Assembly (NCBI GenBank): GCA_044240195.1
Contig: JBIHZX010000001.1
Span: 135,576 to 199,575, forward strand
Length of the DNA: 64,000 nt
From: Candidatus Nanopelagicales bacterium
Lineage (GTDB): Bacteria; Actinomycetota; Actinomycetes; S36-B12
Direction of reading: 5' to 3'
Shown: positions 37,071 to 51,488 of the stretch, piece after piece
How positions within the stretch are numbered: position 1 is the first letter of the stretch
Layout: each line of letters begins with the position of its first letter
Notes under the pieces: model-generated
Told to the model about the DNA's origin: nothing
Databases searched by the model: none
The model's input: only the letters and a program-made list of their open reading frames with translations
Position numbers and translations under genes: made by a program

Positions 37071-37113
37071 AACTGGGCGAAGCTCCTACGGGAGTTTCGC
37101 CCAGTTTTCTTTG
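37071..37113 (+). terminator. Intrinsic terminator after the Ig-like gene (16-bp stem, TACG tetraloop, T-tract)
   Basis: aactgggcgaagctcc-tacg-ggagtttcgcccagtt pairs fully (one G-U pair) and is followed by ttctttg. The right arm and loop also encode the last codons of the convergent pabC-like gene. Confidence 0.55.
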
Positions 37114-37901
37114 TCCAGCGCAACGCGAATCTCATAACCGGCCACAATCTCACGCAATGTTTCATCCGCTGAATTCAATTCTCTATCAACAAATAACTCA
37201 ATTGGTTGGATACCACGAGTGCTGGAAAGCAGTGCAGCAGCATTAGCGCTACCCAGTAAGACCTCATCGATTGATACTTCCCGCACCGAACATGACTCCA
37301 GTACCACTTGGCGAGTAATACCAGGCAGACAACCTGAACTTAAAGGTGGCGTAATTGCTTCACCGTCGACAACGATCACGATGTTGCTTGTTGCCGCCTC
37401 AGAAAGTTGACCAGCATTATCAAAGAAAAGGGTTTCGGAGAAATTCATTCCTCTTGCCCAACTAAGCGCGACCGCATTCTCAGCGTAGGAAGCAGACTTA
37501 GCGCCAGTGATCGTCGAATTCACATTTCGAGTCCATGGTGAGATATTTACGCTGACGCGTGCTGGCCATGGAGTGAACTCGACCAATGACAACAGTAATT
37601 GCGGTTTGGGCACCCCGCCATAAAGTGTGATTCGTAAACGACCAAGTGCGTCATGATGCGATCCGAGCAGTTGCCTAATGCCAGTTGTGATCCCATCAGA
37701 ATCCGGCGGAACAATTCCTAGGATCTCACATGAATTTTTTAGTCGTGCAAGGTGCAAATCAAGAAATTGTGGCACCTCCTCTTTGACCAAGATCGTTTCA
37801 AATACACCCTGGCCCGTTAAAACTTCATGGGTTGCCTCAAGGGATGAATGCTCTTCCCAGTTTCCACTTCGGAAAACAATGGTTGTCATGATGGATTCCA
37901 A
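37086..37901 (-). CDS. pabC: Aminodeoxychorismate lyase-like class IV aminotransferase
   Basis: 271 aa with the class IV fold pattern (TSNIVIVVDGEAITPPLSSGCLPGITRQ). There is a 16-nt overlap with the end of pabB. Confidence 0.7.
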   Translation of the reverse strand: MESIMTTIVFRSGNWEEHSSLEATHEVLTGQGVFETILVKEEVPQFLDLHLARLKNSCEILGIVPPDSDGITTGIRQLLGSHHDALGRLRITLYGGVPKPQLLLSLVEFTPWPARVSVNISPWTRNVNSTITGAKSASYAENAVALSWARGMNFSETLFFDNAGQLSEAATSNIVIVVDGEAITPPLSSGCLPGITRQVVLESCSVREVSIDEVLLGSANAAALLSSTRGIQPIELFVDRELNSADETLREIVAGYEIRVALDKENWAKLP

Positions 37902-38932
37902 TTTTGCTCAGCAATACTGGAAAGATGTCGCGCCTTCAATTGCGTTTCCTCCCACTCAGTTTGTGGATTCGAACCCCACGTGATTCCCGCTCCCGTTCCA
38001 AACTTAAGCAACCCAGAATCAACCCAGAAAGTTCTAATGGCGACGGCGAGGCGTGCGGTTTTTTTATCTGCATCGATCCACCCAAACGCCCCGCAATAGG
38101 GGCCGCGATCCTCAGGTTCAAGTGAATCAATAATGTCAAGGGCAGCGATTTTTGGTGCCCCGGCAATTGAACCGGGCGGAAACGTTGCCTCAATAATTTT
38201 TGACCATTCGAAGTGCTGTGATACTTCTCCCTGTACCGTTGAAACAAGATGTACCAATCCCGGGTGCTGTTGGACTTCGAGTAGGTCAACAGCCTTAACG
38301 CTTCCAACATCACAGCACCGCGAAAGATCGTTGCGAACTAAATCGACGATCATGATGTTCTCCGCGCGATCCTTGTCCAACAACCCGCTGGCGCTTACAG
38401 CGGTTCCCTTGATGGGCTTTGACACCAACCGTGCACCCTCCCTAGAGAGGTAAAGTTCAGGGCTCGCGCAAGCAATGTGAACTCCCACCTCGGCGATGCG
38501 TAGTGCGCCCGCAAAAGGCGCATAATTCCCGCCGGCGAGTAGTGCATCGAGTGCCATAATGTCTGAGTGTGGATCACACACATTGCTTCTGATCCGACAA
38601 ATATTGACTTGATATACGTTTCCTCGTGAAATCGCGCTTCGAGTGGTTTCAACGGCCTTCTCATACAATTCTTGATCCATTGACGTGGTCCACGTTGAAC
38701 TATCAACACCTAACCAAGAACCAATCGTTGCTTCCCGAGGCTCACTCTCCCACGATGCAAAGCGGGCGAAGACTGGTTCTCCCGAAAAGGGAATCATTAC
38801 TGCCCAACGACCGCCACCTTGGATTGACTCGATGTCGTGGCTGAGTTCAGCCAGGTCATAGGCGTATTCGTCCCCAAATCGAGCCATTGGTATCGCGGTT
38901 GCGCCCAAATTCGGTGCACCTGGCTCGTTCAT
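37886..38932 (-). CDS. pabB: Aminodeoxychorismate synthase component I (chorismate-binding enzyme)
   Basis: It has the chorismate-binding C-terminal motifs GAPKIAALDIIDSLEPEDRGPYCGAFGWI and GAGITWGSNPQTEWEE. The start is set at the ATG at 38932, because the track ORF runs into tRNA-Gly. Confidence 0.8.
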   Translation of the reverse strand: MNEPGAPNLGATAIPMARFGDEYAYDLAELSHDIESIQGGGRWAVMIPFSGEPVFARFASWESEPREATIGSWLGVDSSTWTTSMDQELYEKAVETTRSAISRGNVYQVNICRIRSNVCDPHSDIMALDALLAGGNYAPFAGALRIAEVGVHIACASPELYLSREGARLVSKPIKGTAVSASGLLDKDRAENIMIVDLVRNDLSRCCDVGSVKAVDLLEVQQHPGLVHLVSTVQGEVSQHFEWSKIIEATFPPGSIAGAPKIAALDIIDSLEPEDRGPYCGAFGWIDADKKTARLAVAIRTFWVDSGLLKFGTGAGITWGSNPQTEWEETQLKARHLSSIAEQNWNPS

Positions 38933-39034
38933 GACGATAGCCTGCCCGGGTCCTCTAGAGCCCTCCGCTTTGGGCCTGTCATTCGTAATCAGATAGTGTT
39001 TGATCTCGCTTGTTGGGCACATGCCCGTGAGTGT

Positions 39035-39107
39035 GCGGACGTAGCGCAGCTGGTAGCGCATCACCTTGCCAAGGTGAGGGTCGCGGGTTCGAATCCCGTC
39101 GTCCGCT
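39035..39107 (+). tRNA. tRNA-Gly (anticodon GCC)
   Basis: 73-nt cloverleaf: GCGGACG acceptor, anticodon arm TCACC-TTGCCAA-GGTGA, T arm GCGGG-TTCGAAT-CCCGT. Confidence 0.9.
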
Positions 39108-39138
39108 CGAAGGGTTAGCGAGTATCACAAACCCGTCT

Positions 39139-39209
39139 GGTGGAGTGGCCGAGAGGCGAGGCAACGGCCTGCAAAGCCGTGTACACGGGTTCAAATCCCG
39201 TCTCCACCT
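39139..39209 (+). tRNA. tRNA-Cys (anticodon GCA)
   Basis: 71-nt cloverleaf: GGTGGAG acceptor, anticodon arm ACGGC-CTGCAAA-GCCGT, T arm ACGGG-TTCAAAT-CCCGT. Confidence 0.9.
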
Positions 39210-39247
39210 CTCACAAGCAAGACCACAACTGAATTCACCACCGCAAC

Positions 39248-39320
39248 GGGCGATTGGCGCAGGGGTTAGCGCGCTTCCTTGACATGGAAGAGGTCACAGG
39301 TTCGATTCCTGTATCGCCCA
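39248..39320 (+). tRNA. tRNA-Val (anticodon GAC)
   Basis: 73-nt cloverleaf: GGGCGAT acceptor, anticodon arm CTTCC-TTGACAT-GGAAG, T arm ACAGG-TTCGATT-CCTGT. Confidence 0.9.
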
Positions 39321-39325
39321 CTTAC
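39301..39325 (+). repeat. attL-like direct repeat (T-loop to 3' end of tRNA-Val(GAC) plus 5 nt)
   Basis: ttcgattcctgtatcgcccacttac matches 49929-49953 at 23 of 25 positions in direct orientation. Confidence 0.65.
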
Positions 39326-39705: not shown

Positions 39706-40926
39706 GTGTCAAGTAGCGCATTCCATGACGAACCCGCGCTTGAAACTCATGAATTTCAACGTGATATTTTCGCCTTTGCTAACCACCTTGCATGGCACGT
39801 GGGCGGGCCGATAACTATTGAAGACCCATCTTGGCGAATAATTGCCTACTCAACGATCCATCAACGCATCGATGAGGCACGCCGCCGCACGATTCTCAGT
39901 CACGAAGTCCCTAAGGAATATCAAACTCTCCTCGATCAACATGGCGTTGCTAAGAGATTTCTGGCCGGAGACAATGCCGTGGAGATTCCGGCAGACTCTG
40001 ATCTGGCTTTCGCCCGACGAATAGCAGTCCCAGTAAGAATTCAAGGCGTTGTCGTCGGATCAATCTGGGTGGCGGAGTCCAACAACGATCTCAGTCCGGA
40101 CGCTACTGAGTTTCTCCAGGCGGCCTCCGGGCCTGCAAGTTACTTCTTCCGAGTTGAAAGCCACGCCCGTCAGAGAGAGTCGGAAGTATTTCTTAAGATG
40201 CTGGTCGACGGGACTGATGACAACATCTTCCTTGCAGAATATTTCGGTTTCAACTCAAAATCCAGCACACGCGTCCTCGCTGTTTGGCATGGCGGAGACT
40301 TGGGTCTTCGCGATCAATTAATCCACATCGCAGAGGTCGCTAGTCGGGAAGTCGGAATAGACACGCTATCGCTAACCCAAGGCAAAACCGCGTACTTCGT
40401 TGCCTACATGATGCACGCTAAAGATGACTTCGAGGAGTGCACGGAAAAAGTTGCATCTAGGCTGTCAAGTGTTGCAGAAAATCTAGTTGTGGGCCTTGGA
40501 GTCACCGTGTCCCAAGTGCAAGACATCCCGAGATCGAGACAAGAGGCGGATCTTGTCGTTACCTACCTCAGGCACCAATCCAAGGAACGTGTCGCGAGCA
40601 TGGACTCAGTTCGCACCGGAGTCACTCTGATGCTCGTTGCCGAAGTCTTGCGCAATCAATTGAAACCTATGCTTGGTCTGCAGGCATTTTCTAATTTGGG
40701 GGCAGCTGACCGCGAAGAAGTATTAAGTACCTTAGATCTGTTTTTTGAGCACATGGGTAACGCTGCCGAAGCGGCCCGGCGATTACACCTTCATCCAAAC
40801 TCATTTCGCTATCGACTGAACAAGATCTCGGACATTCTCAATGTCGATCTAAGCGACAGGAAGACACGACAGTTACTGGAACTACAAATACTTCTCGAAG
40901 CCTACTCAGACCTAAGTGATGGATGA
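39706..40926 (+). CDS. PucR-family transcriptional regulator
   Basis: 406 aa. The C-terminal PucR-type HTH reads AAEAARRLHLHPNSFRYRLNKISDIL, and the N-terminal part looks like a GAF-like sensor domain. Confidence 0.8.
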   Translation: MSSSAFHDEPALETHEFQRDIFAFANHLAWHVGGPITIEDPSWRIIAYSTIHQRIDEARRRTILSHEVPKEYQTLLDQHGVAKRFLAGDNAVEIPADSDLAFARRIAVPVRIQGVVVGSIWVAESNNDLSPDATEFLQAASGPASYFFRVESHARQRESEVFLKMLVDGTDDNIFLAEYFGFNSKSSTRVLAVWHGGDLGLRDQLIHIAEVASREVGIDTLSLTQGKTAYFVAYMMHAKDDFEECTEKVASRLSSVAENLVVGLGVTVSQVQDIPRSRQEADLVVTYLRHQSKERVASMDSVRTGVTLMLVAEVLRNQLKPMLGLQAFSNLGAADREEVLSTLDLFFEHMGNAAEAARRLHLHPNSFRYRLNKISDILNVDLSDRKTRQLLELQILLEAYSDLSDG

Positions 40927-42030
40927 CCTCGTAATAGTGAGCCGGGAACGCTCCCTTTCTCGGAGTACTTCCGGTATTACATCTACACCTATTCCAGGGC
41001 CCTGCGGGACGCGTAGATAGCCGTCCTCAAGGACAAAGGGGGCAGTTAGGTCCTCGTGAAAGTAACGAGCTGAAGCGGAAGTGTCATTAGGAAGAGAGAA
41101 CCCAGGTAAGCCTGCTAGGGCAATGTTTGCCGCCCGGCCTACCCCCGTCTCAAGCATCCCCCCGCACCATACTGGAATGCTTCGTTCCTGACAGACATCG
41201 TGTATGCGACGAGACTCGAGATACCCCCCAACGCGTCCTGGCTTAATGTTCACTATGGAACACGCCCCGCGTTCAATGGCGTTCAGGGCAACCTGAGCAG
41301 AAGTTATCGACTCGTCAAGGCAGATGGGAGTGGTTGTCATACTGGCCAACCTCATGTGTTGCTCGAGATCATCTTCAGGATACGGCTGCTCAATCATTAA
41401 AAGATTGAACTGCTCTAAAAGGAGAAGCCTGTTCGTTGTTGTTTCGTCGTAAGCCGTATTGGCATCGACACTGAGAAGTAGGTCGCTCCCGAATTCTTCG
41501 CGTACGGATCTCACCGGTTCCAGATCCCAATTAGGGCGAATCTTCAACTTAATTCGGCGGTAACCTTCTTCAATGTATCCACGAACCTCCTCCATAAGTA
41601 CCGGAACCGATTGGGCAATCCCCACTGAAACTCCGCAAGCCACTTTCTCCCTAGTAGCACCGAGGAAAGCTCCGAGAGAAATGCCTTCAGCCCGCAGGTA
41701 GGCATCGATCACAGCTGTCTCCACGGCAGCCTTTGCCATACGATGGCCAACAATTCCTGCAAACACTCTGCCCAACTCATGCACGTTGACTTCATCCAAC
41801 CGCAGGACCAAGGGGGCTAGGTAGCGTTCGATGACAATCTGGGCACTATCAACAAATTCATTCGTATAGAACGGATCTGCGAGCGCCACACACTCTGCCC
41901 ATCCAACACTGGTCGCTGTACGTACTCGCACAAGAAGGACCTGACGCACGGATTGCGTGCCAAATGAGGTCGTGAAAGCTCGCACCAATGGCATCTCGAC
42001 ACGGATCAATGAAATCTCATCGACTCTCAT
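40912..42030 (-). CDS. Enolase-superfamily N-succinylamino acid racemase / o-succinylbenzoate synthase family protein
   Basis: 372 aa. It resembles, from memory, Amycolatopsis N-acylamino acid racemase. Motifs are KxK RIKLKI, VDAN, IEQP, LDES, NIKPGRVGG and VWCGGMLETGVGRAAN. Confidence 0.9.
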   Translation of the reverse strand: MRVDEISLIRVEMPLVRAFTTSFGTQSVRQVLLVRVRTATSVGWAECVALADPFYTNEFVDSAQIVIERYLAPLVLRLDEVNVHELGRVFAGIVGHRMAKAAVETAVIDAYLRAEGISLGAFLGATREKVACGVSVGIAQSVPVLMEEVRGYIEEGYRRIKLKIRPNWDLEPVRSVREEFGSDLLLSVDANTAYDETTTNRLLLLEQFNLLMIEQPYPEDDLEQHMRLASMTTTPICLDESITSAQVALNAIERGACSIVNIKPGRVGGYLESRRIHDVCQERSIPVWCGGMLETGVGRAANIALAGLPGFSLPNDTSASARYFHEDLTAPFVLEDGYLRVPQGPGIGVDVIPEVLRERERSRLTITRSSIT

Positions 42031-42803
42031 GACCCAAGATCCCCATGATTAGTAAACACGTACACTCCTTCATCCCATAATGGTCGATGACCCTTAGCGA
42101 ATTCCACGGCAAACACATCGCGAATGCGAATCCTCAACTCAAGAGCCTCGGCCATGTTGGAGGCGCGAAGGCCTTCTATATCTGGAGGGATCTCTATTCT
42201 CGTATTCCTTCTATCTTTTTGGCCGTCAAGATCGTGGTCTATGCCTACCTCACCATTCAATTGCCAAGAGACTTCGAATCGATCCGTTCGATCCCCCGCG
42301 TTGATCTTGTCATCCATTCCTAGGTAAAAATCGGGGTGAAAAGCAACAACGCGAGCGCCTAACTTGATCAAGTTGAAATAGGCGTTGCGTGCTACCAGCG
42401 GGTCGTAGGTCCAGCGGATTTCAGTCACTCCATGTTCAAGGCAAAGTGCCCGCTGGGCGAGCTTCAAAGCGTATCCCACACCCGAAGAGGCGACCCCCGG
42501 TGAAACTGCCGTCATGTGGGAATGGAGGTGCAAACTACCCGCCCATCCCATGTACCCAAATGCAAATCCGACTGCTACCCCAGATTTTCGTGCAAGTAGT
42601 AAAGAATTTCCCGCATGTGCAATTCCTCTTAGTAAGTTGGAGGGACTAACTTGATCGGGTCCCCATACCTGATCTATTAGCATCTCAATCTCTCTTACAT
42701 CCGTCCCGTTTAGATTGTCTATAACAACCCCGGCACGAGCGCTGGCCGACAACGATTCTTCACGCGCAGCTGACACATGCGACTCATTCACAGCATGAAT
42801 CAT
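42027..42803 (-). CDS. GNAT-superfamily acyltransferase (COG3375-like)
   Basis: The start is set at the ATG at 42803 (MIHAVNES...), in an ATGA overlap with the deacylase stop. The acyl-CoA loop reads SSGVGYALKLAQR. The stop is in an ATGA overlap with the racemase start. Confidence 0.7.
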   Translation of the reverse strand: MIHAVNESHVSAAREESLSASARAGVVIDNLNGTDVREIEMLIDQVWGPDQVSPSNLLRGIAHAGNSLLLARKSGVAVGFAFGYMGWAGSLHLHSHMTAVSPGVASSGVGYALKLAQRALCLEHGVTEIRWTYDPLVARNAYFNLIKLGARVVAFHPDFYLGMDDKINAGDRTDRFEVSWQLNGEVGIDHDLDGQKDRRNTRIEIPPDIEGLRASNMAEALELRIRIRDVFAVEFAKGHRPLWDEGVYVFTNHGDLGS

Positions 42804-44389
42804 GTCGAATTCCTCACTAACCTGCGCCCCCTTCGGGCACCTGCATATGATCCGGCGACCACAACCTCGGACCCGTTCAGCATCACCCACGGAATACCCG
42901 TCGGGGTTTGCACAGGATTCTCAAATGTCGCCGTATCTTGCACCCCCCTCTGATCGAAAGCGACAAGGTCAGCTTTCATGCCAGCTGCGATCCTGCCGCG
43001 ATCGTGTAAACCAAAGGTGTCTGCGGGCAGAGAGGTCATTCGGCGAACTGCCTCTTCCATCGATAGAACTCCTAGCTCTCTTGCAAAACGTCCAAGAATC
43101 CGTGGGAAAGTCCCATAAAGTCTGGGGTGGGGTTTGCCCCCCGTACCAGGCGGCAAACCATCGGAACCAATCATTGTTTGCGGATGACTTAGGGCCGTCG
43201 TTACATCGGCTTCACTCATCTGGTGAACGGTCATCGTTGCCTGAAGCTCCTCGTCAATTAGCACCATGCATAGGGCCGCGCAGGGCTCAATGTCATATTC
43301 GATGGCAATCTCTGCCAAGGATTGCCCCTCAAATCTGTGGTCGCCAGTACTCGCGACCACAATGCCCTCCCACCCGGCGCCCATCACCATATTTTCCCAC
43401 TCAAGACTTATTACTGAGAGACTCTCTTCGAGTTCGCGTATTGCCTGAGCATCACGAAGTCGTCGCAAAACGCCTTCGTTTCCACCTTCCTGAAACCATG
43501 GAGGAAGGCAGGCCGTCAGCATTGTGCTTCCCGCGGTGTAGGGATAAATATCCTGGCGAACATCAACTCCACGTGCACGAGCACTATCGATCAAGTCCAA
43601 GGCCTCCTGCATCCTCCCCCAGTTATAGCGACCCGCGACCTTCAAATGGGAAATCTGTACCCGTCGCCCAGTGGCCTCTCCAACAGCGAGTGCTTCTTCG
43701 ATGCTTTGAAAAACTTGCGCCCCCTCTCCACGCATATGCGTCGCGTAGAGGATGCCCGAGGGAAGTCGCCCTACGAGTTTGGATATCTCCGTATGGCCCG
43801 CAAAAACACCGGGTGGATAAATCAGGCCTGTTGACATGCCGAAGATTCCAGCGTCAACCGACTCATCTAACGCCCTACCCATGGCAGATTCCTCACCCAG
43901 TGAGGGATTACGATTTTCCATGCCCATGGCCAGAATGCGAAGCGTGTGATGACCAACCATCGGCGCGTAGTTGGTCACGTAGCCGCGCATATCTAGTGCT
44001 TCAAAAAAATCGCCCATTGATGTCCAGCCCCAGTCCAAGGGCGGAAAGATTCGAGTGGCATATTCCCGCATAATATCCTCGTGCTGATATTGAAGAGGAG
44101 CCAAACTAAACCCACAGTTACCGACAACCTCTGTAGTGACACCTTGCATTATTTTAGAGACGTCGTCTTCATCCAAAAGTGGAGCGTTGTCAGCGTGTGA
44201 ATGAACGTCAATAAATCCCGGCGCAACAACGAGTCCGGTTAAATCAATTGGAGAGCAGTCTCCGGGTATTCCAGCACCATCGGGGATGACTGCCTCGATC
44301 AAATCCCCATCCAAGATCAAAGTGCCCTTGCGCGCTGAGTCTCCTGATCCGTCTGCAATTAAGGCATTAAGTATCGCTATTCGTGTCAT
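42800..44389 (-). CDS. N-acyl-D-amino-acid deacylase (D-aminoacylase) family amidohydrolase
   Basis: 529 aa. It has the metal motif GFIDVHSHAD and VVGNCGFS, whose Cys matches the Cys ligand of characterised D-aminoacylases. Confidence 0.85.
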   Translation of the reverse strand: MTRIAILNALIADGSGDSARKGTLILDGDLIEAVIPDGAGIPGDCSPIDLTGLVVAPGFIDVHSHADNAPLLDEDDVSKIMQGVTTEVVGNCGFSLAPLQYQHEDIMREYATRIFPPLDWGWTSMGDFFEALDMRGYVTNYAPMVGHHTLRILAMGMENRNPSLGEESAMGRALDESVDAGIFGMSTGLIYPPGVFAGHTEISKLVGRLPSGILYATHMRGEGAQVFQSIEEALAVGEATGRRVQISHLKVAGRYNWGRMQEALDLIDSARARGVDVRQDIYPYTAGSTMLTACLPPWFQEGGNEGVLRRLRDAQAIRELEESLSVISLEWENMVMGAGWEGIVVASTGDHRFEGQSLAEIAIEYDIEPCAALCMVLIDEELQATMTVHQMSEADVTTALSHPQTMIGSDGLPPGTGGKPHPRLYGTFPRILGRFARELGVLSMEEAVRRMTSLPADTFGLHDRGRIAAGMKADLVAFDQRGVQDTATFENPVQTPTGIPWVMLNGSEVVVAGSYAGARRGRRLVRNST

Positions 44390-44400
44390 ATTTGACTCTC

Positions 44401-45300
44401 TCAGGCTCGTGAAATGGGATTAACGACAGGGCAATCGCCCATGGATTCAGGCCACCAGGCGCGTAGAATCGCCCTACCTATTAATCCATTCGCAACATCG
44501 CCTTCCGATTCGGTAAGGAAAGTAAGGTCACTTCCTTCATGGTTCGCTACGCAGTAAGTGAATCCGCCCTGCCCGGGGAATCGAATAATCCCTGCATCGA
44601 CTCTGGTGCCCAAGAAGAATCCAGTCTTGTTGGCCACCATGATTTCCGGAATTTGACCGAGCTCTCTCCAATAAGGGGTGACGCGCATATACCTTGGAAA
44701 CTGGTTGAGATACTGCTGCTGTTCCAAGATTGACTCCATCTCTTCGCACAGCCTTGCATCGACAATAGACCGAAGAGCGATCATTTCCATCAAGGTGCGG
44801 AGGTCTCTTGGGCTCGCCACGCCAAGCCTTCGAATATCATCGCCGATTGCCTCGAAATCGATTCGGTTGTTGAGTCGAACTGTTGCTAGACCCAAGCCGT
44901 CCATTGCTGCATTGACAGTCGCAACGTCGCCCCCAAAGGCATCCAGCACCATGTTGGTCGCGGTGTTGTCGCTGAGCACCACCATTAGGGTTGCAACATC
45001 ACGAACAGTTGGCTCCAGGCCTGATTCAAAAACCTTGAGTATTCCCGATCCACCACGTTTATCAGAATCCTCAAGGGTCAATCGAGAATCCAGTGAGACC
45101 TTACCCAAAGCGGCTAATTCATAAAGTGCAACCAATATTGGGACCTTGATTACGCTTGCCATGGGAAAAACTAAATCAGAATCAATGTCTACCTCCTGCA
45201 TCCCGCTCAGACTCCGAGCAGAAACTGCCATGATTCCTGAGAACTCTCCAATAATTTCGTTAAGTTCGTTTTCCAGCTCACGGGTCATTGCGTACTCCAT
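44401..45300 (-). CDS. Class A beta-lactamase-fold serine hydrolase, no signal peptide
   Basis: 299 aa. It has SxxK (ASVIKV), SDN (LSDNTATN) and KTG (ANKTGF). The N-terminus MEYAMTRELENELNEIIGEF is acidic and not secretory. Confidence 0.8.
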   Translation of the reverse strand: MEYAMTRELENELNEIIGEFSGIMAVSARSLSGMQEVDIDSDLVFPMASVIKVPILVALYELAALGKVSLDSRLTLEDSDKRGGSGILKVFESGLEPTVRDVATLMVVLSDNTATNMVLDAFGGDVATVNAAMDGLGLATVRLNNRIDFEAIGDDIRRLGVASPRDLRTLMEMIALRSIVDARLCEEMESILEQQQYLNQFPRYMRVTPYWRELGQIPEIMVANKTGFFLGTRVDAGIIRFPGQGGFTYCVANHEGSDLTFLTESEGDVANGLIGRAILRAWWPESMGDCPVVNPISRA

Positions 45301-45340
45301 ATTCCAAGTGCATAAACAGTGAATGAATTTGGCTGGGCGT

Positions 45341-45381
45341 GCGGCTGACCCTGATAAAGCGAATCAATCAAGGTCAGCCGC
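45341..45381 (-). other. Intercistronic stem-loop (10-bp perfect stem) between the transporter and enzyme genes
   Basis: gcggctgacc...(21 nt)...ggtcagccgc. No U-tract follows on the transcribed strand. Confidence 0.45.
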
Positions 45382-45407
45382 AACAACTAATCTTTACGGC
45401 CTAATTG

Positions 45408-46613
45408 CTATAGCCCTTCGACGTTGCCTACAACTTGAAGGAAGCCTCCTTTAGAAAGCCATTCATTGTCAGGAACCAGCGCAGGAAGCAACTTGGGCTT
45501 AGTGCTTCCAACGTCGTAATAGTTACCAACGGTGTCCTTGCTCAACACCTGTTGCGGGAACGGGGTCACTTTGACAGTAGGAGTGACACCCAACGCACGG
45601 GCTTGAGCTGCTGCAATTGCATATTGCCCCCAGTAGGAGATGAAAATATCTCCTTCAGCGACCCAACGAGGATCATCGCGAAGTGCATTTAGTCCGCCTT
45701 CGTCACCGCCCAAGCCGCCCACAAGCGTATCGTCATCTCCACCACGGCCGGCATCTTCCATAGCTCGTAGAGCGCCCATGGTTGAGTCGTTATTGACCGT
45801 GTACAAAATGATGTTATTGCCTTCGGGAATACTTGGAATAATATTCTTCACAGCATCAAAACTTGGCTGCAACGTTGACTGTCCATCAAATTGGATCGCA
45901 TTGGCTCCAATCTTTGTAGTCTTTGGAGTAATGGTTGTTGGATCCACCTCTTCCATTCCTAGCATCGGTGCAATCGTCGTGTAAAAGTAGCGGACACAGT
46001 CATTGACCTGCTCGCCGGCCGCTGCGTTCTGACCTATGAGGATCGTTGTGTTGGATGCGTTCCATCCACGATCCTTCGCAATGGCACCAATGATATTCGC
46101 CGACTCTTCGCCAAGTTTCCGATTATCGATATTGAGGAAAGTGCATTCAGCGACGTCTAGATTCATGGCAACGCAAGGGATTCCGCTCTCTCCTAGCATT
46201 TTTCCGACACCCTTGGTCGCTGTCGAGACCGGGTAAATAACGATAGCTGCAGGATTGTCCGCGATCTGGAGTTGAACATTTTCCAGCATCTTTGCTGGAT
46301 CTCCCGCATTGTCGTACCACTTGACTTCCACACCCGTGGCATTGTCCGCAATTTGTTGGTCCAGATTCTTGTGAATTACCTGGAAAAGCGGCGCCGCCTC
46401 CGTATAGATCGACATACTCACGTTGAACGGGTCTGGCAATTGTGCTGTAGCAGCAGTCGGAGACTCCACTGGGGCACTCGACTCAGTGGTGACGTCGGCG
46501 CTGCTGGAAGCAGCGGAAGTGGTTTCCCCTCCTGAGTTTCCGCCACAGGCAGTCACTGTCAGAGCACTCACAGCGATTAGTACACCTAGTTCAATAATCC
46601 TATTTTTTTTCAT
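45408..46613 (-). CDS. ABC transporter substrate-binding lipoprotein (type I periplasmic binding protein, sugar/RbsB-like)
   Basis: 401 aa. A lipobox (LTVTAC) is followed by a Ser/Thr/Ala-rich linker and a PBP type I fold pattern. The RBS is GGTGAGGTGA. Confidence 0.85.
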   Translation of the reverse strand: MKKNRIIELGVLIAVSALTVTACGGNSGGETTSAASSSADVTTESSAPVESPTAATAQLPDPFNVSMSIYTEAAPLFQVIHKNLDQQIADNATGVEVKWYDNAGDPAKMLENVQLQIADNPAAIVIYPVSTATKGVGKMLGESGIPCVAMNLDVAECTFLNIDNRKLGEESANIIGAIAKDRGWNASNTTILIGQNAAAGEQVNDCVRYFYTTIAPMLGMEEVDPTTITPKTTKIGANAIQFDGQSTLQPSFDAVKNIIPSIPEGNNIILYTVNNDSTMGALRAMEDAGRGGDDDTLVGGLGGDEGGLNALRDDPRWVAEGDIFISYWGQYAIAAAQARALGVTPTVKVTPFPQQVLSKDTVGNYYDVGSTKPKLLPALVPDNEWLSKGGFLQVVGNVEGL

Positions 46614-46676
46614 TCACCTCACCTGACCTTCCTTGAATAATCTGTCGGATCCGTTGTTAGAACCGACCTTAATTGG

Positions 46677-47669
46677 CTACACCTTCTTCAGTACTTTCTT
46701 TGTTCTTCGAAACTGACTCAATAACACCGCAATAAGTAAGACAACGCCCGTGGCCATTGTTTGGTAGAAAGAGGGAATGCTCAGCATCGCCATCCCATTG
46801 GACAGAACCCCAAGGAGTAGAACACCCACCAGTGTGCCCGAGACGACACCGACGCCACCTGTCAATGCAGCACCCCCAAGAATGACTGCAGCGATTGATT
46901 GAAGAGCTGAATTGATTCCTGCGGTACCGGAACCTGTAAGCAACTGGCTCGCGAGGATCGCTCCAGCCAGTCCAGCTAACGCTGCTGAAGTCAGATATAC
47001 GGCAAGCGTCACCATATTGACCGGGATGCCAGCGAGTCGCGCCGCTTCGCGATTTCCACCCACCGCATAAAGAGAACGCCCGAAGATCGTATATCTCAAC
47101 ACGAGTGAGGTAACTAGGCAAAGGCCCAAAAACACCCAAATCTGATTGTTCAAACCAAAAATTGATCGACTCGTCAGAATTCCGTCATCGGCATTAACGA
47201 ATGGGATCTGAATTCCACCCGATAAAGTTAGGGCAAGCCCGCCAGATAAATACCAAGTGCCGAGCGTGGCAATGAGCGGGCTTACCTTGGTGTAACCAAC
47301 GAGAACACCATTAATCAATCCGAAAATCCCCGTCGATGCCATTGCCACCAACAACGCCAATGGCATCGTCCACCCAGAATTTAACAGCATTGCAAAAATA
47401 ACTCCGCCCAGCGGTACGGTCCCACTCACTGAAAGGTCAAAGCCCCCAGAGACAATGACTAGCAGCTGGCCCAGAGAAATAACTCCGATAACCGCCGAGT
47501 TTGCAAGTACATTCGTGAGGTTATTAGGCGATATCGATGAACCACCAGTCTGCCACCAAAAAACGCAGATGAGAAGCAAAAGGAATACCAGCAGCATGAG
47601 CGCGCGTCCATTAGTCTCACTCACGACAAACTTATTCTTGGGAATTTCAACTTTAGCGGACTCAATCAT
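46677..47669 (-). CDS. ABC transporter permease (RbsC/CUT2 type)
   Basis: The start is set at the ATG at 47669, 14 nt after the ATPase stop. It is polytopic with the RbsC-like pattern. The track ORF (to 47768) would overlap the ATPase by 86 nt. Confidence 0.85.
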   Translation of the reverse strand: MIESAKVEIPKNKFVVSETNGRALMLLVFLLLLICVFWWQTGGSSISPNNLTNVLANSAVIGVISLGQLLVIVSGGFDLSVSGTVPLGGVIFAMLLNSGWTMPLALLVAMASTGIFGLINGVLVGYTKVSPLIATLGTWYLSGGLALTLSGGIQIPFVNADDGILTSRSIFGLNNQIWVFLGLCLVTSLVLRYTIFGRSLYAVGGNREAARLAGIPVNMVTLAVYLTSAALAGLAGAILASQLLTGSGTAGINSALQSIAAVILGGAALTGGVGVVSGTLVGVLLLGVLSNGMAMLSIPSFYQTMATGVVLLIAVLLSQFRRTKKVLKKV

Positions 47670-47682
47670 CTGCGTGTGCCTT

Positions 47683-49200
47683 TCATAGTAATCCCCCAGC
47701 GGCTTGTAGGGCTTCGACCTGCGAGTCTTCGGTCGGGTTGCAAATTTCATGCACGATTCTTCCCTCACGGAAGATTAGGAGTCGGTCACAAATTGTTACT
47801 GCTTCCTCAATATCTGAGGTCACTACAAGTTGACCGGTACCAGCATCTGCCATTTGGCGCAGGATGTTGTGAAGTTCCACCCGGGCGCCAACGTCAACAC
47901 CACGCGTCGGTTCATGCAGAACGAGCGCAGCAGGTGCCAAGGCAATGCGACTGCCCATCAGCACCTTTTGCTGATTTCCACCAGAGAGTTCAGACACCGC
48001 TTGATTCAGACTCCTGGAACGGAGCAGAGTGACCTTAGCGAGAGTGCGCGCCAGCTCATCCTCTTTCTTCAGGCGCAAAAAACCGAGCCTTGCTAGAGAC
48101 CGCATGACCAATAATGAATATGAGGATTTCACACTCATGATAGAGATGAGCCCTTGAATCTTTCGATCAGCAGGCATGTAGCCGATGGACGCCTTTAATG
48201 CGTCACGAGGTGATTTAGGGACGGGAACTGATCTACCCGCAACCGTAAGGCCGCCACGAACACTCGAGTGCAAACCCCCAAGTGTTTCAGCGAGTGTCCC
48301 AGCCCCGGAGCCCGAAAGTCCATAAACTCCAACAATCTCATTTTTGCCAACAGTAAGAGATATGCCTCGAAGTTGTGGATAATCATCGCGCACCAAAGAC
48401 AACACTTCCAAAATCGGCACGTCTGTAGCTACAGTTGCTGAACTCACTTGCCGTACAGTTTCCTCCCGCCCGAGAATGTGGCTAATTACTTCTGACGGTC
48501 TCGTATCCGAAACGCTTCCCGAAAAAACTAGAGAGCCATTGCGAAGAACCTGCACATGGGAGCAGGCCCGGAATACCTCATCGAGTCGATGAGAGATATA
48601 GACGATTGATGTGCCACTAGCGGCTACACTCTGCATGAGGTCGAGGAGACGCTCACTTTGATCACTATTAAGTGCAGCCGTTGGTTCATCGAGTATGATC
48701 AATTTAGAGCGTCGAGACATCGCTTTCACTATCTCTACAGCCTGCTGGTCGGCAAAACTCAGCGAATACATTTCCGCCCTCATAGGCAAGTCAAATCCCA
48801 GACGCGCAGACTCTTCCGCAGAAGACCTGAGTATTCGTTTGTTCGTAGTCATGAACCCTGAACGCGGCCATCGCCCCAAGCAAATATTCTCAGCGACTGT
48901 CATGCGAGGAACGTAGATCAATTCTTGTGGAATGAGCGAAAACCCATTTATCAATGCCTCTCGAGGAGAGTCAAACCGCAGGCGATCCTCGCCAATGAAA
49001 ATCTCTCCACTATCAGGTTCAACTGCGCCGGCCAAGATCTTGGCTAGAGTTGATTTTCCTGCACCGTTTTCGCCTAGTAAAGCCGTAATCTGGCCGGGCA
49101 ATAAGGAGAAACTCACTTCGTTAAGAACGCTCTGTCCACCATATGACTTGCTCAACTGCCGAAGTTCGATAGGGGGTCTCATGAGCTGGTTATCGTTCAC
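47683..49200 (-). CDS. ABC transporter ATP-binding protein, duplicated ATPase domains (RbsA/CUT2 type)
   Basis: 505 aa. It has a first Walker A GENGAGKST, LSGGNQQK-type signatures and a degenerate second P-loop GLSGSGAGT. The GTG start lies behind GGGGGAGG. Confidence 0.9.
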   Translation of the reverse strand: MNDNQLMRPPIELRQLSKSYGGQSVLNEVSFSLLPGQITALLGENGAGKSTLAKILAGAVEPDSGEIFIGEDRLRFDSPREALINGFSLIPQELIYVPRMTVAENICLGRWPRSGFMTTNKRILRSSAEESARLGFDLPMRAEMYSLSFADQQAVEIVKAMSRRSKLIILDEPTAALNSDQSERLLDLMQSVAASGTSIVYISHRLDEVFRACSHVQVLRNGSLVFSGSVSDTRPSEVISHILGREETVRQVSSATVATDVPILEVLSLVRDDYPQLRGISLTVGKNEIVGVYGLSGSGAGTLAETLGGLHSSVRGGLTVAGRSVPVPKSPRDALKASIGYMPADRKIQGLISIMSVKSSYSLLVMRSLARLGFLRLKKEDELARTLAKVTLLRSRSLNQAVSELSGGNQQKVLMGSRIALAPAALVLHEPTRGVDVGARVELHNILRQMADAGTGQLVVTSDIEEAVTICDRLLIFREGRIVHEICNPTEDSQVEALQAAGGLL

Positions 49201-49928
49201 GGCACCTCCCCCTTGAAGCTATTGATTGGAAATTAGCACTGAGACGACCAGTTGTCTATGTTGCAAACTCCAAATTATCCGATACAAAAATTGCACAAGC
49301 CCCAGACAGAGGACGTCTGCTGACTCAGCTTTAACTTCAAGTCAATTCAATTATGATCACGATTCGATAGTTGACTCCTCTTCAACCGCCCCTACGTTTG
49401 CTAATCCACAGAGTGAAGCAGTGTTCCGATCACCCCCAACTTGCGCAGCCACTTGTCGACACGGAGCATCGGCACCTCGAACCCGTGACCATCGATAGCG
49501 TTTGAGCACTTGAGTTCTGGGTATTGAATGTTCTTGCTCAATGAAACCAGCTGAGTCAACCAGATGCGAGTTGCCGCTGCCGTGGCCCAATCACGCCTAA
49601 AGTTCCCCCAAGTTCATTCGCCTCAAAAAGTTGAGACAGCTTCATTCAGCAAGTGGGCGGGGCTACCTCCTATCTGGCTGGGCTGATTCAGGTAAGGGTC
49701 ACAGGGAACTCCAGCATCGAGCAGCGTTACAAGAAGGAAAGTGCAATTTTTGGGTTATCATCGCGCCGCAACGGTATCGCTGTGGCGACCGCCGGAGTGC
49801 ATTTCGGGGCGCTTGTACTGTAGGGGCGTTCCAACCTTTCCAGCACTGGACAGATCGGCTCATTTTCCGTCATTAAACGCTCACAACAAGGGGAAAAACT
49901 TCCAACATAAATAATAACGGAATACATT
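49201..49928. other. 728-nt stretch with no convincing ORF at the distal end of the island (operon promoter region and possible gene debris)
   Basis: All six frames are broken by stops. Only 60-90-aa ORFs with atypical composition are present. Confidence 0.4.
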
Positions 49929-49953
49929 TTCGAATCCTGTATCGCTCACTTAC
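49929..49953 (+). repeat. attR-like displaced tRNA-Val 3' fragment
   Basis: ttcgaatcctgtatcgctcacttac. It has no D arm or anticodon arm upstream, so it is not a tRNA gene. It matches 39301-39325 at 23 of 25 positions. Confidence 0.65.
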
Positions 49954-50071
49954 CTGAGTTTCCCTGAAACGGATGATGCCTCGGAGTACATTGAATCCCT
50001 TTAGTCTTCTCCTGTGGCAAGCCCCACAGTCATGCGGCACCGATCTGGAAGCCGCGGTTCACCGGTGACTG

Positions 50072-50326
50072 TCATTGCTCGCGCTCTGGTAAAGCATGTG
50101 TAGAGGGCTTTGCTTCAGGCATCATCCATTCCTGAGTCTTGGTCAAATAGGGGTCATTCACATAAGCGTCATAGAGTGAATGCGCTTCTTCATACAGTTG
50201 AGAATCATAGGGGCTGGCTGCGATCCGTTCGAGGAGTTCATCGGCATGCTTCGCCTGAGCCACCGCGCCATTTCTTTGAACTTCACGCAGCTGGTTCACG
50301 GGATCCACAGCCAAAGTCTTCCACAC
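50072..50326 (-). CDS. Hypothetical small protein (weak call)
   Basis: 84-aa ORF with ordinary composition. It has no well-spaced RBS and no motif I recognise. Confidence 0.3.
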   Translation of the reverse strand: MWKTLAVDPVNQLREVQRNGAVAQAKHADELLERIAASPYDSQLYEEAHSLYDAYVNDPYLTKTQEWMMPEAKPSTHALPEREQ

Positions 50327-50390
50327 CTTTCAAACATAGTGATCTACCTCCGATCGGTCGTGTCTGGCCTGATCTGCTTTCCAGTACTCT

Positions 50391-51488
50391 GTGATCGTGG
50401 TAACCAATGATTCATCTCTGCCACTTGCCGGGGTAGTGGTTGTTGACCTCTCATCCAATATTGCCGCACCCTTCGGCTCAGCGATTCTGGCTGATTTAGG
50501 TGCCGAGGTTGTCCATATTGAACCCCCAGCTGGTGACGACAGTCGTCGCATGTCGCCAACAAAAGGTAGCGGCTCAGCTTTTTTCTACGTGGTGAATCGA
50601 AATAAGTCATTTGTCACATTGGACCTGCGACTGGACACGGATCAGGAAACCCTTTTCGAGATGCTCACCGCAGCTGATGTCTTAGTGAGTAACCTACGAC
50701 CATACAAGCTTGCAGAACTGGGATTAGACGCTCCGACCCTTGCTGTAACTTTGCCCGGCTTGATCACCGCCTATCTCAATGCCTACGGACCGCATCCAGA
50801 TGAATTAGATCAGGCCGGTTACGACGGTGTAATCCAGGCAAGGACCGGCATTATCGGAGTAACCGGAGCCACTGAACCGGCGCGTGCGGGAGTTTCGATC
50901 CTGGACATGGGTTCGGGAATGTGGCTTGCGATTGGGGTGCTCTCGGCCCTCTATCAAAAGTCGATAACGGGACTTGGATCAAGCGTTTCCACGTCACTGT
51001 TTGAGACGGGAGTGAACTGGAGCGCGTATCACCTGCTCGCCCATCAATTCACGGGAGAGGCGTCAACTCGCGCCGGAACCGGCCACCCTGCTTTTGCTCC
51101 CTATGGACTGTTCCCAACAAGCGATGGCCAAGTCATGATCGGCGTTGGTGGTGACGCCGTTTTCGCACGGCTTGTCAACAGTATTGGTCTGCCGGAACTA
51201 CTGACCGACTCACGCTTTGCTACCAATAGCGCCCGGGTGGCACACCAAACCGAATTGAAGGAAACGCTTTCACAGGCTTTTGCGAACTTTTCCAGCACCG
51301 AACTCATCACAGTTCTACGAAACGCAGACGTGCCTTCAGATCTTCTTGCCTTGCCAGAAGACCTACTCGATGACCCAGCCGCGCACGAACAACTAACGAA
51401 AATTGTTGTGAGCGGACAAAACTCAAGGATGCCTTCACTCCCACTAAGAATTAATGGCGAATACCCGCCAATTAGGTTCCCTTCCTAA
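50391..51488 (+). CDS. Family III CoA-transferase (CaiB/BaiF type)
   Basis: 365 aa. The N-terminal pattern is PLAGVVVVDLSSNIAAPFGSAILADLGAEVVHIEPPAGDDSR. Confidence 0.85.
   Translation: MIVVTNDSSLPLAGVVVVDLSSNIAAPFGSAILADLGAEVVHIEPPAGDDSRRMSPTKGSGSAFFYVVNRNKSFVTLDLRLDTDQETLFEMLTAADVLVSNLRPYKLAELGLDAPTLAVTLPGLITAYLNAYGPHPDELDQAGYDGVIQARTGIIGVTGATEPARAGVSILDMGSGMWLAIGVLSALYQKSITGLGSSVSTSLFETGVNWSAYHLLAHQFTGEASTRAGTGHPAFAPYGLFPTSDGQVMIGVGGDAVFARLVNSIGLPELLTDSRFATNSARVAHQTELKETLSQAFANFSSTELITVLRNADVPSDLLALPEDLLDDPAAHEQLTKIVVSGQNSRMPSLPLRINGEYPPIRFPS

Follow-up and report, generated by a model that had tools for sequence, protein, structure and literature searches.

Why should a D-aminoacylase-type hydrolase share a gene cluster with an acyltransferase and an N-succinylamino-acid racemase (NSAR), two enzymes whose known joint pathway ends in an L-specific hydrolase? 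The question is raised by a 64,000-nt stretch of DNA from Candidatus Nanopelagicales bacterium (GenBank assembly GCA_044240195.1, contig JBIHZX010000001.1, forward-strand positions 135,576 to 199,575; hereafter the window), in which the amidohydrolase P0001 is encoded next to a GNAT-family acyltransferase and an NSAR on an island at a tRNA-Val gene. In the published D-to-L pathway, the GNAT-NSAR pair acts with an L-desuccinylase of the M20 family (summarised in bioRxiv 10.1101/2022.03.03.481873 and PMC12006748). An original prediction, made from the window's sequence, had framed P0001 as a D-enzyme where an L-desuccinylase would be expected, and had offered two readings: net L-to-D conversion, or release of D-amino acids from imported compounds followed by re-acylation and racemisation. 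The framing fails, since orthologous D-acylases share an operon with an M20 enzyme in sister clusters. Of the two readings, the second is favoured by the comparative evidence, with enzyme specificities that are predicted; on balance, we think it probable that P0001 frees D-amino acids from imported compounds, and that the GNAT, the NSAR and an unlinked M20 hydrolase convert them to the L-form. The three genes at the centre of the question are as follows.

42800-44389, minus strand: D-aminoacylase-family amidohydrolase P0001, 529 aa, identified by its motifs and by sequence and fold matches to 1M7J.
42027-42803, minus strand: COG3375-type GNAT-fold acyltransferase, 258 aa, identified by its fold model and its adjacency to the NSAR gene.
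40912-42030, minus strand: NSAR of the NSAR/OSBS subfamily, P0003, 372 aa, identified by its match to 1SJA.

Judged by its sequence, P0001 is a member of the D-acylase clade, as originally proposed. Its open reading frame contains both motifs on which that proposal was based (GFIDVHSHAD at residues 58-67 and GNCG at residues 90-93), and a sequence search against solved structures matches it to Alcaligenes faecalis D-aminoacylase (AfDam, 1M7J; E 1.8e-83) and to Bordetella N-acyl-D-glutamate deacylase (3GIP; E 7e-74). An AlphaFold model built with 32 homologues (pLDDT 88, pTM 0.90) has the same fold as the Alcaligenes enzyme (Foldseek TM 0.90, E 1.7e-44), and the comparison of the pocket that the original prediction had called for was made at the level of the alignment. 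The best matches to the model include 1M7J, 3GIP and 9G5M; after 1M7J rank 3GIP, a Klebsiella D-acylase and the deacetylase OngB, and the next fold class after the D-acylases has an E-value about 27 orders of magnitude weaker. Among family profiles, PF07969 scores 106.5 bits, above its 29.7-bit cut-off, and NCBIfam NF006560 scores 166.6 bits, below its 340-bit cut-off.

By alignment, P0001 conserves H63 and H65 (HxH), C92, H218, H248, K250, Y282 (in YPY), T289, D410 and R423. The metal-site ligands H63, H65, C92, H218 and H248 correspond to AfDam H67, H69, C96, H220 and H250, and the catalytic D410 and the anchoring residues Y282, R423 and K250 are invariant in 32 members of the subfamily. The Tyr, Arg and Lys anchor the acetamido and alpha-carboxylate groups in all members of the family (PMC12017989). 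The modelled fold consists of a (beta/alpha)8 barrel, a beta-domain and, after strand 7, an insertion domain that exceeds that of every solved D-acylase relative by about 45 aa; the insertion domain of D-acylases shapes specificity (PMC12149444). Two pocket residues are also changed, with AfDam F191 and M254 replaced by Ile190 and Ala252. We nominate this 529-aa D-acylase subfamily, in which the specificity domain is enlarged, for substrate profiling.

The D-acylase gene belongs to a run of seven co-directional minus-strand genes that spans 40912-49200. The translational coupling that had been claimed is present in the sequence at both junctions: the deacylase stop and GNAT start overlap as GACATGATT at 42803-42800, and the GNAT stop and racemase start overlap as GTCATGAGA at 42030-42027. 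The first of these overlaps indicates that the true GNAT start is the ATG at 42803 rather than the GTG at 42890. From the serine hydrolase gene upstream of P0001 through the D-acylase and GNAT genes to the NSAR gene, the spacings are 11, -4 and -4 nt.

The acyltransferase is hard to place from primary sequence, with a PF00583 score of 18.2 bits, under the 20.7-bit cut-off, and no match even at E 10 in a sequence search against solved structures; its model (pLDDT 84.8), by contrast, has a clear GNAT fold by fold search. The nearest structures are the amino-acid N-alpha-acetyltransferases ArsN, the phosphinothricin acetyltransferases (PAT/BAR) and YncA/PA4866. The family is widespread in Actinomycetota and Dormibacterota, and in 47 of 59 related loci its gene adjoins an NSAR gene; at least seven of the remaining loci end at a contig end. 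We predict that the protein is an amino-acid N-acyl (succinyl) transferase. P0003 matches Amycolatopsis NSAR (1SJA) with E 6e-132 and keeps K161, K163, D189, E214, D239, K263 and R266 with numbering identical to that of the Amycolatopsis enzyme. We considered and rejected a role for P0003 as the OSBS of menaquinone synthesis; on contig C119, menB and menD have a separate menC of actinobacterial type between them, and with this menB-menC-menD set of its own the genome does not require OSBS activity from P0003.

What does the D-acylase do beside this pair, if it does not replace the desuccinylase? Five sister clusters share the gene order ATPase, permease, substrate-binding protein, beta-lactamase-fold hydrolase, D-acylase, GNAT, M20, NSAR, with a divergent PucR gene (L023, Kribbella alba; L024, Euzebyaceae; L026; L027; and L032, Pseudonocardia aurantiaca). 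The D-acylases of these clusters have 54-58% identity to P0001, all of its motifs and the long insert, and in all five clusters a gene for a 375-aa M20 metallohydrolase stands between the GNAT and NSAR genes. This M20 corresponds to the L-desuccinylase of the published pathway (bioRxiv 10.1101/2022.03.03.481873). Since the sister operons encode both enzymes, the D-acylase is additional to the M20 and does not replace it. More widely, M20 is a recurrent partner of the GNAT-NSAR pair, being divergent from it in the Nanopelagicales-related congeners, upstream of it in Pseudonocardiaceae, and between its two members in Dormibacterota and Kribbella; some sampled GNAT-NSAR loci from congeners, Pseudonocardiaceae and Dormibacterota have no M20 within 9 kb.

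A family profile search of the window's genes found no M20 on the island itself. The original prediction had asked whether an M20/DapE-type enzyme is encoded elsewhere in the genome (1.93 Mb, 93.5% complete), and one is: contig C108 carries an intact M20.

L082 7620-8735, minus strand: M20 hydrolase P0376, 371 aa, intact.

P0376 retains the metal and catalytic motifs and belongs to the same M20 subfamily as the operon enzymes; its identity is 70-81% to congener M20s and 44% to the M20 of the Kribbella-type operon. Compared pairwise with congeners, it gives a dN/dS of 0.10-0.14; the computable pairs among congeners give 0.06-0.11, with synonymous sites partly saturated. NSAR is carried by 17 of 21 congeners, at only 52-60% identity to P0003, and in the four congeners whose native locus we examined the order is XPB helicase, M20 (divergent), GNAT, NSAR and a 626-aa gene. 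Contig C108 keeps this synteny, with a gap of just 275 bp between the M20 gene and the 626-aa gene. Aligned with congener G021, the gap (L082, G000 contig C108, 8736-9010) matches the 5' part of the native GNAT region and the native NSAR at its 3' end; it is the deletion scar of the native GNAT-NSAR pair.

Native GNAT-NSAR pairs are widespread in planktonic actinobacteria of Nanopelagicales type (L089-L092, L045-L081), and a divergent M20 adjoins the pair in the four examined congeners (L089-L092) and in L061, which suggests that D-to-L amino-acid conversion is common in small freshwater and brackish genomes of this type. For the genome that encodes P0376, GroEL relatives at 96-97% identity are labelled Candidatus Nanopelagicales. 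A further M20-family gene, on contig C6 of the same genome (G000, 50067-51057), is broken by one TGA and may be a pseudogene or reflect a frameshift.

We propose that the island extends the D-to-L pathway at its entry. The importer would take up an N-blocked or peptide-bound D-amino-acid compound, from which the serine hydrolase and the D-acylase would release the free D-amino acid. The GNAT would then N-acylate this, probably with succinyl-CoA; the NSAR would racemise the N-succinyl amino acid; and the M20 encoded in trans on contig C108 would cleave the L-form, pulling flux to the L-amino acid. P0001 would here be an active, D-specific N-acyl (or aminoacyl) D-amino-acid hydrolase, and it should discriminate against N-succinyl-D-amino acids, because it would otherwise run a futile cycle with the GNAT. 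The substrates, the stereospecificities, the acyl donor, the imported ligand and the service of the unlinked M20 to the island enzymes are all putative in this scheme. The D-to-L pathway has had no known natural source of substrate, and the island, together with non-orthologous analogues described below, suggests one: D-acylase-family hydrolases with dedicated importers would supply GNAT-NSAR-M20 with D-amino acids taken up in bound form. The probable sources are N-acyl-D-amino acids or debris of peptidoglycan type, which form a large pool in the dissolved organic matter of aquatic environments.

Several observations weigh against this proposal. The predicted preference of P0001 for D-forms derives from residue conservation at 30-36% identity to characterised enzymes, and its substrate may not be a simple N-acetyl-D-amino acid, given the insert that is about 45 aa longer and the two differing pocket residues. 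The importer is of sugar type, which is odd for amino-acid derivatives. That the island enzymes use the unlinked M20 is something we infer, and, with the native GNAT-NSAR deletion undated, the low dN/dS of P0376 is weak evidence. Lastly, the layout without M20 recurs in metagenome contigs L101-L105, of which L102 has all eight genes, and in the NSAR tree these form an M20-less clade whose sister clade has M20; the loss of M20 from the operon thus persists stably across an entire clade.

Looser relatives of the cluster show how else its components are combined. We examined 20 Pseudonocardiaceae NSAR loci, most of which have the order M20-GNAT-NSAR, often with PucR. In four of the 20, an amidohydrolase of PRK09061 type lies immediately upstream of (M20-)GNAT-NSAR; these enzymes form a different D-acylase-like branch, as reflected in a score of 650 bits against NF006560. 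One such gene is preceded by a MalEFG-like CUT1 sugar-type ABC importer (L150, 12155-18270), and another stands in the order amidohydrolase-GNAT-NSAR with no M20 within 9 kb (L142, 10937-12427). These Pseudonocardiaceae layouts are independent of the window's cluster but analogous to it. Orthologues of P0001 also occur apart from the cluster. In Modestobacter sp. (L108, 6292-10717), an AMP-dependent ligase, an orthologue with 55% identity and an M20 are tightly linked; the M20, which is 61% identical to the cluster M20, is coupled to the orthologue, and no GNAT or NSAR is nearby. L109 (1475-9602) combines PucR, a divergent Asp/Glu-type racemase, a CUT2 ABC importer and an orthologue with 59% identity, and is possibly an alternative solution with a cofactor-independent racemase. 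In L110, the orthologue is found with a peptide ABC importer and MlrC-type peptidases. The contexts in L108, L109 and L110 look catabolic.

The opposite direction was the first alternative of the original prediction: the GNAT would acylate L-amino acids, the NSAR would racemise them, and the D-acylase would be the terminal hydrolase, for a net conversion of L to D. The gene coupling on which this alternative drew holds, with three translationally coupled genes and no L-hydrolase between them; the M20-less layout is a stable clade rather than a one-off deletion, and L142 likewise lacks a nearby M20. The direction itself is without positive support. Five sister operons encode both an orthologous D-acylase and an M20, and a pair of opposed terminal hydrolases would be futile there; the native M20 is intact in the genome despite the loss of its native partners. 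Moreover, net L-to-D conversion leaves the importer and the catabolic-type PucR regulator unexplained, and the island encodes no consumer of D-amino acids. We thus regard it as very improbable; if true, an L-to-D route in the M20-less clade would mirror the one NSAR pathway that has been characterised, and would give the industrial D-acylase/NSAR process a natural counterpart.

The main open alternative concerns the substrate, which could be an N-acyl D-configured 2-amino sugar acid or a similar glyco-conjugate, as OngB acts on N-acetyl-D-glucosaminate. OngB (9KB1) is of the same fold family (TM 0.89, 31% identity to P0001), members of which differ only in the side-chain pocket (PMC12017989); P0001 has an unusually long insertion domain, and carbohydrate-type importers recur with these clusters (CUT2 in the window and in L109, CUT1 in L150). 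Nonetheless, P0001 is nearer to AfDam than to OngB, and an assignment as an OngB-type deacetylase fails on two grounds: at the position of OngB Ser292, P0001 has the Thr of D-aminoacylases (T289; PMC12017989), and the island has no sugar-acid kinase, deaminase or aldolase. A sugar-acid substrate is accordingly quite unlikely in our estimation. A mixed catabolism of N-acyl amino acids is unlikely too, and differs less from our proposal. Racemic or D-enriched N-acyl amino acids would be imported and racemised directly by the NSAR, the D-acylase and the M20 would be enantio-complementary exits, and the GNAT would only recapture released D-amino acid. NSARs accept several N-acyl groups, and the P0001 orthologue of Modestobacter is coupled to an M20 with neither GNAT nor NSAR nearby, as this route would allow. 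The route largely overlaps D-amino-acid release followed by D-to-L conversion, differing just in the entry point, and on that point the strict pairing of GNAT and NSAR indicates that acylation of the free amino acid is the main entry.

How did the cluster come to stand in a genome that had its own version of the pathway? The cluster is bounded by a direct repeat at a tRNA gene.

39248-39321, plus strand: tRNA-Val(GAC), the site of island integration.
39296-39325, plus strand: proximal 30-nt copy of the direct repeat, at the tRNA-Val 3' end.
49924-49953, plus strand: distal copy of the direct repeat, at the far end of the island, 87% identical to the proximal copy over 30 nt.

The 10.6 kb between the repeats contain exactly eight genes, the PucR regulator and the seven co-directional genes. 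Congener G021 lacks the cluster and has just 4.4 kb between the genes that flank the island here; no P0001 homologue was found in 21 same-genus and three same-family genomes, and P0003 lies far from the native congener clade in the NSAR tree. The absence of P0001 homologues from these 24 relatives, the position of P0003 in the tree and the direct repeat at tRNA-Val point to a horizontal origin: the module is a mobile island. In the simplest history, a foreign GNAT-NSAR pair came with the island, the genome lost its native pair, and its native M20 remained in use. A small planktonic actinobacterial genome would thus have undergone xenologous replacement of two enzymes of the pathway, the third being still its own.

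The island holds no integrase gene, and the 728 nt from the ATPase start to the distal repeat are without a credible open reading frame. Its tRNA-Val belongs to an array of tRNA-Gly, tRNA-Cys and tRNA-Val at 39035-39325. Beyond the array, at 37086-39064, there is a 16-nt overlap between the gene of a chorismate-binding enzyme and that of a class IV aminotransferase, an arrangement like that of a PabB-PabC pair; as called, the long open reading frame of the chorismate-binding enzyme enters tRNA-Gly, such that its true start must be further downstream. On the other side, a family III CoA-transferase gene (50391-51488) was considered as part of the module and rejected: it is located just beyond the repeat that bounds the island, and congener G021 has, at the same place, a remnant of it of only 83 aa.

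The remaining five genes of the island encode the serine hydrolase, the importer and the regulator.

44401-45300, minus strand: class-A beta-lactamase-fold serine hydrolase, 299 aa, with SVIK at 49, SDN at 110 and KTG at 225.
45408-46613, minus strand: type-I (Peripla_BP_4) substrate-binding lipoprotein of a CUT2-type ABC importer.
46677-47768, minus strand: ABC permease of AraH/RbsC type, start codon uncertain.
47683-49200, minus strand: tandem-domain ABC ATPase of AraG/RbsA type.
39706-40926, plus strand: PucR-family regulator, convergent with the NSAR gene and kept beside the cluster in relatives.

The best solved relatives of the serine hydrolase are 4EWF and Tll2115 (PBP-A). PBP-A is a DD-peptidase-like relative of class A beta-lactamases. 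We saw no signal peptide by eye, and judge the enzyme to be cytoplasmic. A scan of the island for promoters and terminators gave fewer sites than shuffled sequence, and we therefore claim no operon substructure.

Set against known systems, the module is a new form of the D-to-L pathway, not a new kind of system. It resembles the published pathway in its GNAT-NSAR pair, in an NSAR that is not required for menaquinone synthesis, and in an M20, the third partner that relatives conserve and that this genome also encodes. It differs in that the M20 is unlinked and the GNAT is of COG3375 type, and in that the pathway is carried on a tRNA-Val island and extended by an importer, a PBP-A-like hydrolase and a D-acylase. 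We found no description of this extension in the published literature, in a survey that did not cover the published genome-context analysis of NSARs. The D-acylase itself is like those of Alcaligenes faecalis DA1 (1M7J) and Bordetella bronchiseptica (Bb3285, 3GIP) in fold (TM 0.88-0.90), in the subtype-V metal site with its Cys ligand, in the catalytic Asp and in the Tyr, Arg and Lys anchors; it is unlike them in its longer insert and altered pocket, and is only 33-36% identical to them. With the N-acetyl-D-glucosaminate deacetylase PpOngB (9KB1), it shares the fold family, the anchoring residues and the link to carbohydrate-type uptake, but it has the Thr of D-aminoacylases in place of the OngB Ser, and its island is without downstream sugar-acid genes. 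Lastly, the industrial "amidohydrolase process" also uses NSAR and D-acylase families together (PMC12149444). That process yields D-amino acids by an artificial dynamic kinetic resolution; by contrast, the natural pairing, which is accompanied by a GNAT and an importer and in relatives also by an M20, suggests a net conversion that runs the other way.

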